A stretch of 64,000 bases of DNA from an uncultured Verrucomicrobiae bacterium (GTDB lineage Bacteria; Verrucomicrobiota; Verrucomicrobiia; Limisphaerales; Palsa-1400): NCBI GenBank assembly GCA_963702845.1, contig OY969763.1, forward strand, positions 288,001 to 352,000. Direction: 5' to 3'. The position numbers and the translations under genes were made by a program. The notes below the pieces were generated by a model that was not told the DNA's origin, searched no databases, and saw only the letters and a list, made by a program, of their open reading frames with translations. The stretch's first letter is position 1. Each line of letters starts with the position of its first letter. Below, piece after piece: positions 25,614 to 34,309 of this stretch.

Positions 25614-26894
25614 ATGACAACGAACAGTTTGATATTTGATCGCCGCGAATCCGAAGTCCGTTCCTACTGTCGCGCCTTCCCGGCCGTTTTCAACAAAGCG
25701 CAAGGCGCTTTCCTCTACGACGAAGCCGGCACTCGCTACCTGGACTTCTTCGCCGGTGCCGGGACGCTCAATTACGGCCACAATAATCCTGCAATCAAAA
25801 AAGCCGTCATCGACTACCTCGAGCGTGACGGCATTGTCCATGCACTCGATTTGTGGACCGGCGCGAAACGTGCCCTTCTCGAAGCATTCGAGACCAACAT
25901 CCTCAATCCACGTAATCTCGATTATAAGATCCAGTTCACAGGCCCCACCGGCACCAATGCCGTTGAAGCCGCTCTCAAGCTTGCGCGCAAAGCAAAGAAT
26001 CGCTCCAACATCGTCGCCTTCACCAACGGTTACCATGGCCTTTCCGGAAACGCGCTTTCCACCACCGGCAATCGCCACTTCCGCACGGAAGCATTCGTTA
26101 ACCGGCTCGACGTTTCGTTCCTGCCTTTTGACGGCTATTGCGGTGACGGCTTCGATTCGTTGAAATATTTCCAACGGTTGATCGAGGACAACAGTAGCGG
26201 CCTCGATCTCCCTGCCGCTGTCATCCTCGAAACCATCCAGGCCGAAGGCGGAATCAATATTGCCCGCAAAGAGTGGCTCCAGGGCCTCGAAGCGCTCTGC
26301 CGCAAACACGATATTCTGTTGATCGTCGACGACATCCAGGTTGGCAACGGTCGCACGGGCGATTTCTTCAGCTTCGAATTCGCCGGCATCCGTCCCGACC
26401 TCGTCACGGTCTCAAAAGCCATCGGCGGCTTGGGTCTTCCGATGTCACTTGTCTTGATCAACCCAAAGATCGATCTCTGGAAACCAGCGGAGCACACCGG
26501 CACCTTCCGGGGAAATAACCTCGCTTTCGTCGCCGCCACCGCGGCATTGCAGTATTGGCAAAACAACGAATTTTCCAACGAGATAAAGCGCAAAGGAGAG
26601 CTGTTGCGCTCCTTGCTCGAAGCCGTCAAAGACAAATTCCCGTCACTCGATTGCAAAGTGCGCGGACGCGGCCTCATTTACGGCCTCGAAATCCCGCAGC
26701 CCGGCTTCGCCAAATTGGTTTCCCGCGAAGCGTTCCAGCGAAAGCTTATTATCGAGCTGGCAGGTGCCGACGATCAAGTGGTGAAATTCCTCCCGCCGCT
26801 GATAACTGACGATCAATCCCTGCGCGATGGCGTGCAGATCGTTGATCAAAGTATTGCTGCAATCCTCAAGGGTGCGATTAAAGCCGGTGGTTGA
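25614..26894 (+). CDS. ectB: Diaminobutyrate--2-oxoglutarate transaminase
   Basis: ESEVRSYCR, DFFAGAGTLNYGHN, GPTGTNAVEAALKLARK, VDDIQVGNGRTG and EHTGTFRGNN motifs. Confidence 0.93.
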   Translation: MTTNSLIFDRRESEVRSYCRAFPAVFNKAQGAFLYDEAGTRYLDFFAGAGTLNYGHNNPAIKKAVIDYLERDGIVHALDLWTGAKRALLEAFETNILNPRNLDYKIQFTGPTGTNAVEAALKLARKAKNRSNIVAFTNGYHGLSGNALSTTGNRHFRTEAFVNRLDVSFLPFDGYCGDGFDSLKYFQRLIEDNSSGLDLPAAVILETIQAEGGINIARKEWLQGLEALCRKHDILLIVDDIQVGNGRTGDFFSFEFAGIRPDLVTVSKAIGGLGLPMSLVLINPKIDLWKPAEHTGTFRGNNLAFVAATAALQYWQNNEFSNEIKRKGELLRSLLEAVKDKFPSLDCKVRGRGLIYGLEIPQPGFAKLVSREAFQRKLIIELAGADDQVVKFLPPLITDDQSLRDGVQIVDQSIAAILKGAIKAGG

Positions 26895-30040: not shown

Positions 30041-30157
30041 TGCTCTTGGTCCAAAACGACCGTGCTAAACGAAAATTGTAACACCCCCTCTCCGCGTTCT
30101 CGTCCGTCGTTGAAAGAGAAGATGCGCGAAAGCAGTCATCCGCGGCAAAGCAATAAC

Positions 30158-30859
30158 ATGCTGGAAACGACACCGCGCACTCACAGCACTCGTGCTTGCT
30201 TCGGTTTGTTAATGCGTCAGGAGCGTTGGGGATTTTCAGGGCGTGGACGACTGATTCTCGTGATTCTTTTCGTCGCCGGATTCATCGCAGCCGTTCTGCG
30301 CGTGCATCCGTTTTTAGCCGTCACTCAACGGACTGATACAGACATTCTGGTTGTGGAAGGTTGGATAAACCAGTTTACCACACGCACTGCGGCAAAGGAG
30401 TTCAACACCGGTTCGTACCATCGCCTGTTTACTACTGGCGGCCCGGTTAAGGGCAGTGGTGGTTACATCAATGATCAAGAAACCGTCGCCAGTGTGACCG
30501 CTGGTTTCTTGCGCCAGGCGGGAGTTCGCACGGATGCCGTGCAGATGGTGCCCTCTCACGTCATCGGTCGTGATCGTACTTACAGCTCCGCCGTGGCGTT
30601 GCGCGACTGGTTCCGTGATCATAATATGTCCGTGCGCAATTTTAACGTGCTGACCGAGGACGCGCACGCGCGACGAACCCGGATGCTGTTTCAGGAAGCG
30701 TTCGGCAAGGATGTCAAAGTGGGAATCATATCTGTGCCCAGCCCCGATTACGATGCGGCCCACTGGTGGCGTTATAGCGAGGGCGTCCGGGAGGTCCTCG
30801 ATGAGACGATCGCGTACATTTACGCAAAGTTTTTCTTTTGGCCTGAGACTCCTCACTAA
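30158..30859 (+). CDS. YdcF/ElyC (DUF218) family protein
   Basis: TM anchor, LVVEGW, TTGG, DRTYSSA and HARRTR motifs; start uncertain (30062-30212). Confidence 0.75.
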   Translation: MLETTPRTHSTRACFGLLMRQERWGFSGRGRLILVILFVAGFIAAVLRVHPFLAVTQRTDTDILVVEGWINQFTTRTAAKEFNTGSYHRLFTTGGPVKGSGGYINDQETVASVTAGFLRQAGVRTDAVQMVPSHVIGRDRTYSSAVALRDWFRDHNMSVRNFNVLTEDAHARRTRMLFQEAFGKDVKVGIISVPSPDYDAAHWWRYSEGVREVLDETIAYIYAKFFFWPETPH

Positions 30860-30925
30860 ATGCCGTTCAATTTCTAGCTTCCGACTCGTAGCTCCCACTG
30901 CTGGCTCCGTAGGTTTTTTTGGCCC

Positions 30926-30988
30926 TCGACCTTCGACAATCGACTCTCGACCGCTGTCCCTTTCGCATGTTTCGCGTATTTCGCGGTT
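30926..30988. repeat. Short tandem repeats (TCGACnn x4; TTTCGCnnn x3)
   Basis: 7-bp period at 30926-30951 and 9-bp period at 30961-30988. Confidence 0.7.
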
Positions 30989-31033
30989 AACACGTTTTGT
31001 TTTCCACCTTGAATTTGCCCATTCGAATTTTAC

Positions 31034-31062
31034 TTGAAAATCTTTCCAGAAATTCGCATTCT
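31034..31062 (+). promoter_or_regulatory. Putative sigma-70 promoter for the downstream structured RNA
   Basis: TTGAAA-17 nt-CATTCT; predicted +1 near 31069 coincides with the first hairpin. Confidence 0.4.
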
Positions 31063-31068
31063 TTCTCT

Positions 31069-31172
31069 GTCAATCAACTCTGCGGTGCAGGGTGGGGTTG
31101 ACCGGCCAACTCATTCCGGTGGAATGCCAGCGCCCCCGCCACTTCGGGCCTTTCTCGGTGAGAGAGGGTTTT
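31069..31172 (+). ncRNA. Candidate small structured RNA with three C(GGU)G-capped hairpins
   Basis: Stems at 31069-31102, 31112-31126 and 31149-31167, each with a GGT loop; ends in TTTT. Confidence 0.5.
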
Positions 31173-31365
31173 AAGCGATGCGCCAGAGCGCGACGCTCAT
31201 ATACTCATATATCTCAAAGAATCCTAAGAATCCGTCAGCGAACTGTTGTCGTTCGCTGACATAACGTGCCGGCGTTTGTCCCGGTTGGAAAGGTCCGTAT
31301 TATGGAAATCCAGGAAATAAACTGCGCCGCTGGACGTTCCGGTCAGTGGCTAAAACTCCGCAAGT

Positions 31366-31893
31366 GGTCAAATTCGGTAAAGAAACGGTAAACTTTACCG
31401 GTCGTGAATCCGGCAGAGGTAAAACTTCGGTAAAGAAAAGGTAAACTTTTGCCGCCTTTCGTAAAATGAACGCGGTCCAAACGAAAAAACGTACAGAAAA
31501 TGTACAGAAAAGTTCAGTTTTCGATCCACGCCTGAAAAACCGTGAAAAAGGTAACCGGAGGTAATCAGAAGTAATCGGAGGTAATCTCATGATGCAATCT
31601 CACGGTCACGTTTGGTCATCTTTGGTCATCGGAGGTAATCTCATTATGCCGCAATTCGAAATCCGCAACGGGTATGAAACTGCACCGTTTCTGCATCATT
31701 TCTGCCTCGCTTTCCCTAATATTACCGGTTTCCAAAGTGCCAATACTCCGCCTTATGACCGCGTTCAAACCCGAAAAAATCTTTTCAATGACCTGAAATG
31801 ACTTTTAATGACCTTTAGCGACGTTTCACGGTCCGAAATCCGCAATCCTGTGCCGGCGGTAAAGTTCGGTAAAGAAACGGTAAACTTTTTACC
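31366..31893. repeat. Field of 10-11-bp-period repeat blocks, including a 24-mer present three times
   Basis: TTCGGTAAAGAAA(C/A)GGTAAACTTT at 31373, 31426 and 31865; GTACAGAAAA, GGTAATC, GGTCATC, CTGCA and AATGAC blocks between them. Confidence 0.85.
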
Positions 31894-31895
31894 AG

Positions 31896-31923
31896 GTAGG
31901 GCGTGCTCTCCGAGCGCGCCGCG
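31896..31923. repeat. GTAG-type REP-like palindrome
   Basis: GTAG followed by GGCGTGCTC-TCC-GAGCGCGCC; a similar element lies near 53302-53329. Confidence 0.55.
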
Positions 31924-32118: not shown

Positions 32119-33348
32119 ATGAACAAAAACCTATTTGCATTACTCTGCGTTCTGTCTTTGCCTTTGGCACTACCCGCACAACCTGTCCTCGCTCCTACTC
32201 CGGCAGTACCGGTATCGCCGCAATTCCTCACGGATTTACAGAGTGGACCTTTTCCTGAAACCGCTAATTCGGTTTTGATGACGATGTTAGGGCTCGCACC
32301 TTATCAGGTTGGACCGGTTGCGATCCATCCGCATGCAGTCTATCGGTTGATGTATAGTACCGGATTGCAGGATCAGCCCGGACATCCGCAATCGTCGGTG
32401 ATCAACGAAATCACGCCTGGATTGCTACTTGCGATTGGTACCCACTGGTCAGTGGATTATAGCCCGAGCTGGACCGTCTACTCGAACGAACATTTCCAAA
32501 ATAGTCTTGGCCAGTCGCTTCGGCTTTCGGGCGGAGCAAGTTATCGTGACTGGCTCTTTACCCTCAATCATAGCTATCAGGCTTCGTCGACTACACAGAC
32601 CGAAACGGCTCAGCAGACCGATGAGGAAGTGCACGACACGAAAATCACGGCCAATTACCAGTTTAACAGCAGCTTTTCTATAGAGTTGGAGGCCGCACAG
32701 AACATCAGGTTGGCCAGCGGCTTCAGTAGCTCGTATAATTGGTCAACTATGGACTGGCTCAATTATGACCTCGGTGCGCGGTTTCAATTTGGGCTGGGAG
32801 CTGGTTTTGGGTACGATGAAGTCCCGAGCAGCGTGAACATGTCGTCCGAGCAATTACAGGGTCGCCTTAGTTGGCGGACATCGGATAAAATTTCACTCCA
32901 AATCAACGGCGGGGCGGAGGATCGCCAGTTTCTCGGTTCGAATGTTCCGGATCTGATTAGTCCCACATTTGGCGTAGGCCTGTCATATCAACCTCTTCGA
33001 TATACCAGTCTTTCGCTGAACGCAAACCGCTCCATAACGCCATCTCTTTTCCAGGAGCAGGCCACCGAATACACCATATTCAGTGCAACCGTGACGCAAC
33101 GTCTGCTCAAACATTTCACTGCCAGCGTAACTGGCGCATATAATAATGCGCAGTACATCGCCACCTCACAAGCGGTGAGCGCGGGTCGAACCGATAACTA
33201 TTATTCAATCAATACCCGGCTCAGTTGGGTCTTGTTGAAACAGTTCTCCATGTCATTGTTTTACTATTACAGTTCTAACTCGTCGACAAGCGCCGGGTTT
33301 GGCTATTCGAGCAGTCAGACAGGATTTGAAGTCGGCTATCGTCTATAG
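32119..33348 (+). CDS. Outer-membrane beta-barrel protein (BBP2-like, EPS/exosortase-associated)
   Basis: Signal peptide, alternating Tyr/Ser/Thr beta-strands and terminal FEVGYRL beta-signal. Confidence 0.8.
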   Translation: MNKNLFALLCVLSLPLALPAQPVLAPTPAVPVSPQFLTDLQSGPFPETANSVLMTMLGLAPYQVGPVAIHPHAVYRLMYSTGLQDQPGHPQSSVINEITPGLLLAIGTHWSVDYSPSWTVYSNEHFQNSLGQSLRLSGGASYRDWLFTLNHSYQASSTTQTETAQQTDEEVHDTKITANYQFNSSFSIELEAAQNIRLASGFSSSYNWSTMDWLNYDLGARFQFGLGAGFGYDEVPSSVNMSSEQLQGRLSWRTSDKISLQINGGAEDRQFLGSNVPDLISPTFGVGLSYQPLRYTSLSLNANRSITPSLFQEQATEYTIFSATVTQRLLKHFTASVTGAYNNAQYIATSQAVSAGRTDNYYSINTRLSWVLLKQFSMSLFYYYSSNSSTSAGFGYSSSQTGFEVGYRL

Positions 33349-33370
33349 TTGACCATTTACGGATTCATCA

Positions 33371-34309
33371 ATGCAGCAATTGCAATCAAGTCGGGCAGTC
33401 CAAACCTCCAGTGCACACAGCCGCACTATCGTGCGTCGTTGGCTGATTGCGTTTTTGGTTGCCGCAGCTATTTTTTATCGTCCCTGTCGCGAACTCGTGC
33501 GCTTCGCTGCGCATAGCGAGCTCTACTCGCACATCTTCTTAATCCCGGTCATCTGCTTTTATCTCGTTTGGATAAACCGACGAACGACGCCGGTTGGAAA
33601 ATCGTCGTTCGTTGCCGCACTGCTCGCCTACATTCCGGCACTGATTCTTGTCGGATTGTACTTTGGACATCCTGCGGCCGGCTTCTGGCACGTGAAGAGC
33701 AATTACCTGTCGGCGATGATGGTCGCGATGGTCCTGATGTGCATCGGTAACTTGTTTGTTTTGCTCGGGAAAGATTTCGTTCGCGCCGCCTTGTTTCCGA
33801 CCTTGTTTTTAATGCTCATGGCCCCGTTTCCCGAGGGGGTTTTGAACGACATCGAGACTTTCTTTCAACATTCATCCGCCTGGACGGCTGGCGTTATGTT
33901 CGATATCACCGGCACAACCGTCCTGCACAATGGCCTTTTCTTTCAATTGCCCGGAATCACTTTGCAAGTCGCACAGGAATGCAGCGGCATTCACTCCAGC
34001 CTTGTCCTGATGCTCACTGCCTTGATCGCCGGGTATTTCTTTTTCCCGTCGTATCGCTTTCGCGTGTTGCTGGTGCTGTTTATCATCCCGCTCGGCATTG
34101 TTCGTAATGCCTTCCGCATCTTCGTTATCGGCCAGCTTTGCTCGCATGTCAGTCCCGACATGATTCACTCCTACATTCACCATCATGGCGGCCCGATCTT
34201 CTTCGCTTTATCGCTGGTTCCCTTCTTCATTTTATTGCATTATTTGCGAAAGATTGAATCCCGGAAGATTCAAGCGCCTCAGGCAAACGTCAGCGTTGTC
34301 GGTCAATAG
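33371..34309 (+). CDS. Exosortase (probably the VPDSG-CTERM-specific XrtC type)
   Basis: About 8 TM segments; YSHIFLIP; catalytic Cys/Arg/His in VAQECSGIHS, RNAFRI and IHHHGG. Confidence 0.9.
   Translation: MQQLQSSRAVQTSSAHSRTIVRRWLIAFLVAAAIFYRPCRELVRFAAHSELYSHIFLIPVICFYLVWINRRTTPVGKSSFVAALLAYIPALILVGLYFGHPAAGFWHVKSNYLSAMMVAMVLMCIGNLFVLLGKDFVRAALFPTLFLMLMAPFPEGVLNDIETFFQHSSAWTAGVMFDITGTTVLHNGLFFQLPGITLQVAQECSGIHSSLVLMLTALIAGYFFFPSYRFRVLLVLFIIPLGIVRNAFRIFVIGQLCSHVSPDMIHSYIHHHGGPIFFALSLVPFFILLHYLRKIESRKIQAPQANVSVVGQ

Follow-up and report, generated by a model that had tools for sequence, protein, structure and literature searches.

A structured leader RNA with repeated C(NGN)G loops in one Verrucomicrobia order and its likeness to a hairpin pair in a prophage scaffold gene

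RESULTS

Organization of the element and its neighbors

The element lies within the window, the whole 64,000-nucleotide stretch of DNA that was analyzed, and between two sets of genes that are outside it: upstream, a DUF218 gene (30062..30859) at the end of a polysaccharide cluster and, downstream, a BBP2 beta-barrel gene and an exosortase gene (32119..34309). The parts of the element and these neighbors are on the plus strand except for the remnant repeats at the 3' end, to which no strand was assigned. A sigma70 promoter was predicted at 31034..31062, with a -35 sequence of TTGAAA (31034-31039), a 17-nt spacer and a -10 sequence of CATTCT (31057-31062), and the predicted +1 at 31069 is the first nucleotide of hairpin P1 (31069..31102), a bulged helix of 14 bp with a C(GGU)G loop at 31084-31086 and a G-C apical pair. 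P2 (31104..31134) consists of a 3-bp base, an internal loop and P2b (31112..31126), which has a C(GGU)G loop at 31118-31120 and a C-G apical pair. The short hairpin P3 (31135..31148) has a variable loop that is not conserved and provided an internal control, while P4 (31149..31167) has 8 bp, a C(GGU)G loop at 31157-31159 and the sequence GTTTT 3' of the stem. On folding, P1, P2b and P4 each formed with a C(GGU)G triloop and P3 did not, such that the promoter-like site and the three C(GGU)G hairpins of the original prediction were confirmed by both sequence and folding. The three hairpins are therefore real, but that description had missed the closing helix of P2, P3 and three more hairpins that extend up to the ribosome-binding site (RBS) and the ATG. 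These further hairpins, predicted from folding as P5 (31174-31197), P6 (31234-31260) and P7 (31268-31285), form the 3' half of the leader together with an A-rich linker between P5 and P6. This 3' half (31174..31285) had 83 to 85% identity to intact paralogues; covariation was counted for the core helices only.

A Shine-Dalgarno region (31287-31296) precedes an ATG start codon at 31302 and a helix-turn-helix (HTH) gene stub (31302..31391), a 29-codon remnant frame in which homology to the intact paralogue stops at 31316. ORF2, the second gene of intact copies, is absent. Remnant repeats (31366..31890) of a GGTAAAG type and with 10- to 11-bp phasing are common to the intact modules, and the match at a period of 10 to 11 was 0.58 versus 0.33 to 0.42 at control lags. 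Folding energy alone was unexceptional for the window element (z = -0.54). Folded as DNA the element reached -18 kcal/mol versus -42 kcal/mol as RNA, and P2 was lost in DNA. Short dispersed repeats that are common to many relatives, and include a GTAGG-headed REP-like palindrome, were observed at 30920-31006 and 31888-31915. Within the polysaccharide cluster, positions 25614-26894 encode a diaminobutyrate transaminase (EctB-like, above the cut-off).

The promoter was below the threshold of the consensus promoter scanner and absent from its output, but is supported by the recurrence of its position in homologues. Of 19 lineages, 15 had a TTG at -37..-34 (1.4 in shuffles) and 13 had a YAnnnT at -14..-11 (2.8 in shuffles), in each case at a fixed offset from P1, which upheld the placing of +1 at the start of the first hairpin. 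Transcription of the window element is thus predicted to start at 31069. Nine sequencing runs had shares of at most 0.09, and the lone RNA run, which had no coverage of the element or of the leader of the intact paralogue, was uninformative.

The element had been proposed to be an RNA of ~100 nt, either an sRNA or an attenuator, ending at the TTTT and linked to the exopolysaccharide (EPS) and exosortase operons. Neither part of this proposal was supported. A U-tract 3' of P4 was present in only 3 of 20 lineages, no intrinsic terminator was called by the scanner in the window element, and the conserved unit continues to an RBS and an HTH gene. None of 20 orthologous BBP2/exosortase loci, scanned with 1.5-kb flanks that perhaps covered most exosortase upstream regions only in part, carried the element, and in a genome of the same genus the upstream gene and BBP2 were ~115 nt apart. 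These results indicated that the window element is an insertion and not an exosortase leader.

Copies, homologues and covariation

In this genome, 15 of the 26 listed BLAST matches, at E < 1e-4, were whole or partial copies, with 11 of the 15 clustering between 3.12 and 3.26 Mb. The eleven whole or partial copies of this cluster (C1:3125000-3261000) were on the minus strand below ~3.18 Mb and on the plus strand above. Clusters of at least three C(GGN)G hairpins occurred seven times in the 6-Mb genome, all of them in this leader family. The possibility that hairpins with CGGTG loops are a common genome-wide DNA repeat was not borne out, as only 47 of 22,342 hairpin sites were of this type, ranking 37th among triloops and showing no enrichment.

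A covariance model was built from six homologues, none of which was from this genome. The model recovered the window element exactly at 31069-31172 with 87 bits and detected 10 copies in this genome at E <= 0.001. Leader RNAs were found with this model in 15 of 36 HTH-positive genomes, after removal of one false match (a hit in G127, at L198, that is a REP-like repeat), and in 6 of 150 sampled genomes of the order, five of these six being HTH positive. There were no leader RNAs in 150 other genomes of the phylum, where 26 candidates were scored in each genome. When 185,579 species were scanned for the pattern, 64 matches were obtained, of which sixteen exceeded 35 bits in the covariance model; 15 of these were titled Verrucomicrobia or Limisphaerales and one Bifidobacteriaceae. 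The latter record (L128), in which a long-type RNA occurs with an HTH gene of 73% identity, is probably a mislabelled bin. The leader RNA was thus found in a single Verrucomicrobia order only. In viral_contigs there was no HTH relative, and the one RNA pattern match failed the covariance model, while 15 prophage stretches did not contain the full leader RNA. Rfam 15 gave no match in the window, and the best match on an intact copy (E = 0.99) was below the gathering cut-off.

Covarying homologues were detected for both forms of the RNA. In the short type, 18 of 36 pairs had changed on both sides, none of 500 shuffles was as good and slid controls collapsed; for P1, 8 of 14 pairs had changes on both sides. 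The long type, which has a three-way junction, four capped hairpins and two C(GGN)G hairpins at the P2 position, had both-side changes in 20 of 54 pairs. Orphan copies without genes retained most of the pairing (274 Watson-Crick plus 55 G-U of 338 cells). Overall, positions 31069-31172 are the four-helix core of a structured leader of 200 to 350 nt. A GAA/AGUA internal loop, which we take to resemble the bulged-G motif, was present in 12 of 29 short copies and absent in the lineage of the window. A candidate conserved leader peptide 3' of P4 was rejected by eye.

A P4-like motif was present in 18 of 43 HTH upstream regions (one gene at a contig start was dropped). As P4 had served to find homologues, its conservation is partly selected, and hence the loop tally was limited to P1 and P2. 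All 48 of these unselected loops, from 19 lineages, were C-N-G-N-G: GGU in 21, GGG in 19, GGC in 4, CGC in 2 and GGA and CGA in one each. The leader loop consensus is C(NGN)G. Stems of the 19 lineages contained 67 G-U and 1 A-C combinations; the P4 loop of L086 was left out of the lineage loop and stem tally. The repeated loops look like binding sites for one protein, in agreement with the original prediction, but the GGU specificity ascribed to that protein did not hold.

The gene unit headed by the leader

Intact copies contain, in order, a promoter, the RNA, the HTH gene (ORF1), repeats and ORF2. Two such copies, at 2.55 and 3.26 Mb, had P5 to P7, a GAAAG(G) RBS, an HTH gene of 136 aa, short repeats and ORF2. 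Similarity between the window copy and the copy at 2.55 Mb extends over positions 31067 to 31316, after which both genes are lost and the repeats persist; HTH-gene stubs like that of the window were also found in other genomes. The unit is ~2 kb in size. No integrase, transposase or replication genes were detected in the unit among nine neighborhoods (37 chosen ORFs scanned), and the flanks had IS3-type genes beside one of the nine and chromosomal genes beside the others.

The HTH gene was found in 35 of 401 genomes of the order. In most copies the RNA directly precedes the HTH gene or stub, and over half of the HTH units were without a leader RNA. Short, long and no-RNA states were interleaved on the HTH tree, with 8 changes among 32 genes, and the paralogues were mosaic, with an identity of 0.51 just 5' of +1 versus 0.82 just 3' (8 copies). 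HTH genes without the RNA had no excess of upstream DNA repeats (p = 0.16), leaving unsupported the idea that the RNA had replaced repeat arrays. A second HTH subfamily (123 aa, 33% identical) was observed at C1:812791, 877386, 1163814, 1556891 and 2104811, with one copy behind an RNA and the others behind 10-bp repeats.

ORF1 matched HTH_23 in 30 of 32 cases, mostly below the cut-off, and Terminase_5 in 10 of 32 (best E = 2e-5). Its structural model consisted of an HTH and a helical hairpin (pLDDT 83). In a fold search, Sf6 gp1 ranked second to fourth at weak E values of 0.3 to 0.6 and there was nothing at E <= 0.001 in PDB or BFVD; a sequence search of PDB was empty, and the ORF1 and ORF2 folds otherwise matched generic helical hairpins only (Z <= 8.5). 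Comparison of ORF1 with the small terminase (TerS) of the prophages gave an hhalign value of 11%, and matches in the ESM Atlas were Verrucomicrobia HTH clusters, with TerS-named clusters further down. The likeness of ORF1 to TerS, judged from sequence and modeled fold, is weak.

For ORF2 there was no match in Pfam, PHROG or the ESM Atlas. This protein (e.g., L029:2117-2944) has an Arg-rich N-terminal helix, with Arg every 3 to 4 residues and a 4-residue periodicity, and two LxxxYG motifs. Over the C-terminal 70 columns, comparison with prophage TerS gave an hhalign value of 96% (E = 2e-9), and the ORF2 profile matched the ORF at the TerS position in all five prophages of this genome, two of these ORFs being confirmed as phrog_6299. 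These profile comparisons indicated that the C terminus of ORF2 is homologous to the small terminase of the resident prophages. Two further matches to the shared profile of ORF2 and the TerS tail were located outside the five prophages, at C1:3858011-3858262 and 5404433-5405638, both on the minus strand. At L070:2312-3085, an HTH gene without the RNA has a full TerS (phrog_6299) directly 3', an arrangement that is possibly ancestral.

Complementarity between P4 and the Shine-Dalgarno region

The end of P3 and the 5' strand of P4 (31146-31155) can form 10 bp with the Shine-Dalgarno region at 31287-31296. In the window this anti-Shine-Dalgarno (anti-SD) duplex had an energy of -16.6 kcal/mol, and only 1 of 600 random ORF starts was as good. 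The duplex had a median of -11.9 kcal/mol across 20 lineages, whereas in 17 HTH genes lacking the RNA the median was -5.1 kcal/mol (p = 1e-4). A duplex of -9 kcal/mol or better was found in 15 of the 20 lineages; the other five had no good match (-3.3 to -7.9 kcal/mol) though P4 was retained. A comparison of pairing with own versus other RBSs was not significant (p = 0.33). The difference between alternative folds of the whole leader was +3.8 kcal/mol in the window and ranged from -8.5 to +7 kcal/mol in copies with the match, most copies having a difference of only a few kcal/mol.

A hairpin pair in the scaffold gene of resident prophages

Prophage-like regions occur five times in this genome; they are related and contain TerS, TerL, portal, scaffold and capsid genes. 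Nine C(GGN)G hairpin pairs outside the leader family were detected in the genome, of which four were at one place in the scaffold gene. This site, a covarying C(GGN)G pair in C1:143570-144367 and four paralogues (and also in L215-L245 and L258-L277), is in a Gly-rich linker near the 3' end of the gene and ~170 to 200 nt ahead of the capsid gene. The pair was present in 32 of 51 scaffold genes versus 0.3 expected. In a set of 31 genes that holds one discovery copy, 23 had the pair versus 0.18 from synonymous shuffles, and it was found in 9 of 20 further genes (51 to 69% identity) versus 0.1 expected. In the 26 genes that remained of the 31 after removal of five with indels, 28 cells had both-side changes versus 10. 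The stems of the pair contained 69 G-U and no A-C combinations, while fourfold third positions elsewhere in the scaffold gene were only 42% identical. An excess of C(GGN)G hairpins was seen in the scaffold gene (63 versus 10.2) and was absent in MCP (10 versus 8.0) and portal (7 versus 6.7) genes.

Loops of the scaffold pair were GGU in 34, GGG in 14 and GGC in 1, such that leader and scaffold pair share the same spectrum of GGU > GGG > GGC. The apical pairs also agreed: G-C in 18 of 19 leader P1 hairpins and 21 of 21 phage A hairpins and C-G in 9 of 9 short-type P2b hairpins and 20 of 21 phage B hairpins. Spacing of the tandem hairpins in the long-type leader (22 to 23 nt) was close to that of the phage pair (21 nt), unlike the 34 to 35 nt between P1 and P2b of the short type.

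The scaffold gene was present in 53 of 400 other genomes of the order, comprising 21 of 34 HTH-positive genomes versus 32 of 366 others, a comparison in which kin are not independent. Genomes rich in RNA copies were also rich in scaffold genes (RNA/scaffold counts of 10/5, 7/4, 4/6 and 3/5), and only 8 of 14 RNA-positive genomes, which are drafts, had a scaffold gene. RNA-positive genomes had dual phage sites no more often (5 of 7) than the other two groups (6 of 11, and 18 of 22 for HTH-negative genomes). The phage pair mostly occurs in genomes without a match to the HTH gene and hence the phage site cannot depend on the HTH protein of the unit, which makes a phage or host protein a more likely ligand of the phage pair than one of the unit's own. 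One scaffold relative was found in viral_contigs.

Single C(GGN)G hairpins, nearly all Watson-Crick, were also observed in the prophages of this genome, on one strand (40 versus 8). Ten of these single hairpins have a tail (A(T/C)(C/T)CA) and are on the prophage sense strand, mostly within genes (C1:128536, 129212, 1707983, 1709643, 1709895, 1711498, 1719252, 2246234, 4293100 and 4824485); they are possible priming or operator sites. The tailed sites did not recur in eight other phage regions, several of which have no replication module. A prophage-like region (L214:2357-8261) has HTH_17, AEP PrimPol-like, AAA_25, TerS and TerL genes and five relatives in the genome, and may be a capsid-forming satellite.

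DISCUSSION

Comparison with known systems

The leader lacks the tested defining features of Csr/Rsm RNAs, attenuators and satellites. As with CsrB and RsmZ, one loop motif is carried on unrelated stems, and the leader too could titrate a protein. Csr/Rsm sites are, however, A(N)GGAX hexa- or pentaloops (PMC4005645), whereas the leader has NGN triloops closed by C-G, of which one in 48 was GGA, and it heads a gene unit. An independent transcript with an intrinsic terminator was not apparent from the U-tracts or the scanner, this genome (90% complete) had no match to CsrA (PF02599), and it had no three-loop clusters outside the leader family. The likeness to Csr/Rsm RNAs that had been drawn from the repeated loops was accordingly not supported.

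Similar in gene order are Aca1 and Aca2, which have a structured 5' UTR right after the start site of an HTH-encoding operon in a mobile context (PMC13551039); with respect to gene order only, the leader likewise is a structured UTR before an HTH-encoding operon. The Aca motif described there is a single hairpin of ~20 nt in the 5' UTR, with a DNA operator in the promoter and a position ahead of acr genes, whereas the leader has 4 to 5 helices, 3 to 4 equal loops, a length of 200 to 350 nt and an anti-SD, and its hairpins are matched by a site in a phage gene. The ssiA and ssiB sites of RSF1010 have a single hairpin (nt 7 to 27) within a site of 40 nt that is recognized 5' of the stem (PMC8567376); they share with the present hairpins a strand-specific hairpin near an AEP primase system and differ in that the leader is part of a multi-helix unit with an RBS and a predicted promoter. 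Phage satellites are whole elements with integrase and replication genes, unlike the ~2-kb unit, which contains neither an integrase nor a transposase. The proposed likeness is that of a small parasite equipped with a terminase-directed protein and with a copy of a phage signal. Satellites of the SaPI/PICI type interfere with packaging. In PLE, with Gpi, GpsA and GpsB, packaging interference goes together with mimicry of the DNA pac site (PMC11417361), and this is the nearest logic, although at the level of DNA; here the object of mimicry would be a pair of RNA-type hairpins within the scaffold gene. Autoregulation of the P22 scaffolding protein, in which a head-assembly protein reportedly controls expression at the scaffold gene, is a precedent of principle and is not known to involve a mimic RNA. 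IRE-like loops, phi29 pRNA and type III toxin-antitoxin RNAs are further conceivable parallels; the leader RNA is missing in over half of the HTH units.

Candidate ligands of the leader

The occurrence of the same capped hairpins in the leader and in the prophage scaffold gene suggests that the leader binds a phage protein by mimicry of the scaffold-gene double hairpin and that this binding gates translation of the unit, an explanation that we put forward tentatively and at a little under even chances. In the resting state, the 5' strand of P4 would occlude the Shine-Dalgarno region of the HTH gene. During the late phase of a prophage, a protein that binds the scaffold mRNA hairpins, with the scaffold or capsid protein as first candidates, would also bind P1, P2b and P4 of the leader. 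The bound protein would keep P4 folded, free the Shine-Dalgarno region and turn on translation of the unit, and the TerS-tailed ORF2, once made, may interfere with or redirect packaging.

Several observations weigh against such gating by a phage protein. The RNA is dispensable for the gene pair, being present in fewer than half of HTH-positive genomes; a quarter of the lineages have no good anti-SD match, and own RBSs were not significantly better than others; many RNA-positive genomes have no scaffold gene, and dual sites are no commoner in these genomes; and the short-type spacing departs from that of the phage pair. What the leader and the phage site have in common amounts to just 7 nt and a stem, for which a host factor or plain stability could account. 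Furthermore, the loops within one molecule were concordant in 46 of 87 pairs versus 32.6 by permutation (p = 0.002, kin included), independently of local GC content (rho = 0.02), and this concordance fits a cognate partner equally well.

Such a cognate partner could be the unit's own HTH protein, with dual DNA and RNA binding like that of Aca1 and Aca2, or the Arg-rich helix of ORF2, the phage pair then being a second target or convergent. The concordance of loops, the Arg residues at every 3 to 4 positions of the ORF2 N terminus, the immediate 5' position of the RNA in most copies and the Aca precedent (PMC13551039) are all in keeping with autoregulation, but RNA types have been swapped over the HTH tree, most HTH-negative genomes with the scaffold gene have the dual phage site and HTH genes without the RNA show no excess of DNA repeats upstream; we consider this explanation unlikely, though not negligibly so. 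Reading of the hairpins by a host factor or RNA polymerase, in the prophage late operon and the unit alike, would draw on the promoter-proximal position of the leader, the location of the phage pair ahead of the capsid gene and the AT-rich repeats 3' of the HTH gene. Either antitermination or mRNA protection could be the outcome, and we assume a likeness of the leader hairpins to put, nut and EAR elements. This reading is less probable again, as the host genome has no other three-loop clusters, the phage pair is deep in a late gene rather than behind a promoter and the anti-SD match is left unexplained.

The hairpins might also have no ligand: C(GGN)G would then serve only to stabilize the stem or to resist nucleases, and translation would be timed by the folding kinetics of the leader. 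Free variation of the third loop base and two near-isoenergetic folds fit this idea; the variable P3 loop in the same molecule and the agreement with the phage pair in loop spectrum and in apical pairs and their order do not, and we rate it as improbable. Slightly more improbable still is a role as ssDNA priming or origin signals for a prophage primase (ssiA-like), a role that would account for the spread of copies as well. Here the evidence consists of an AEP PrimPol-like protein (a weak match, E = 0.001) beside an AAA_25 ATPase in a prophage, the priming by RepB' beside a hairpin (PMC8567376) and the single hairpins on one prophage strand, ten with a shared 3' tail, a strand bias that is also obtainable from G-T wobble. 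Such signals fit poorly with the coincidence of +1 and P1, the GAA/AGUA loop of short copies, the anti-SD match, the loss of P2 in DNA and the failure of the tailed sites to recur in other phage regions. A stand-alone titrating sRNA or attenuator of ~100 nt for the EPS and exosortase operons is largely refuted and has a very low probability: the promoter, repeated loops and TTTT of the window copy, the pairing kept by orphan copies and the polysaccharide-type setting of 2 of 7 fetched neighborhoods are outweighed by the empty orthologous loci, the rarity of the U-tract, the RBS and HTH stub on the 3' side and the lack of a CsrA match.

Implications

Taken to its full extent, the explanation by a phage protein would describe a ~2-kb non-autonomous parasite or defence unit that senses lytic development: its leader would mimic the scaffold operator, bind a head-assembly protein, flip the anti-SD and release a TerS-tailed jammer or hijacker of packaging, with gene-less copies as decoy RNAs. 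As a whole this scheme is doubtful. A gene-less copy such as that of the window may act as a decoy, and for the window copy a decoy role toward the phage protein could be the only one, or the copy could be decaying.

A search of the literature on the motif and the phage site produced no description within sources other than subscription journals and supplements, whose motif catalogues could hold one. Within searchable sources two features are new: an RNA family for which Rfam 15 has no entry and, in the scaffold gene of a widespread family of Verrucomicrobia prophages, a conserved double hairpin of RNA type. Because the motif is shared, the ligand could be tested for directly among a few proteins. 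Phage sensors known so far are mostly proteins, and the mimicry described for satellites is that of DNA pac sites (PMC11417361). If the proposal is true, it would offer a template for protein-gated translation switches, and a leader that copies a phage mRNA site in order to time a terminase-directed protein would represent a new sensing logic.
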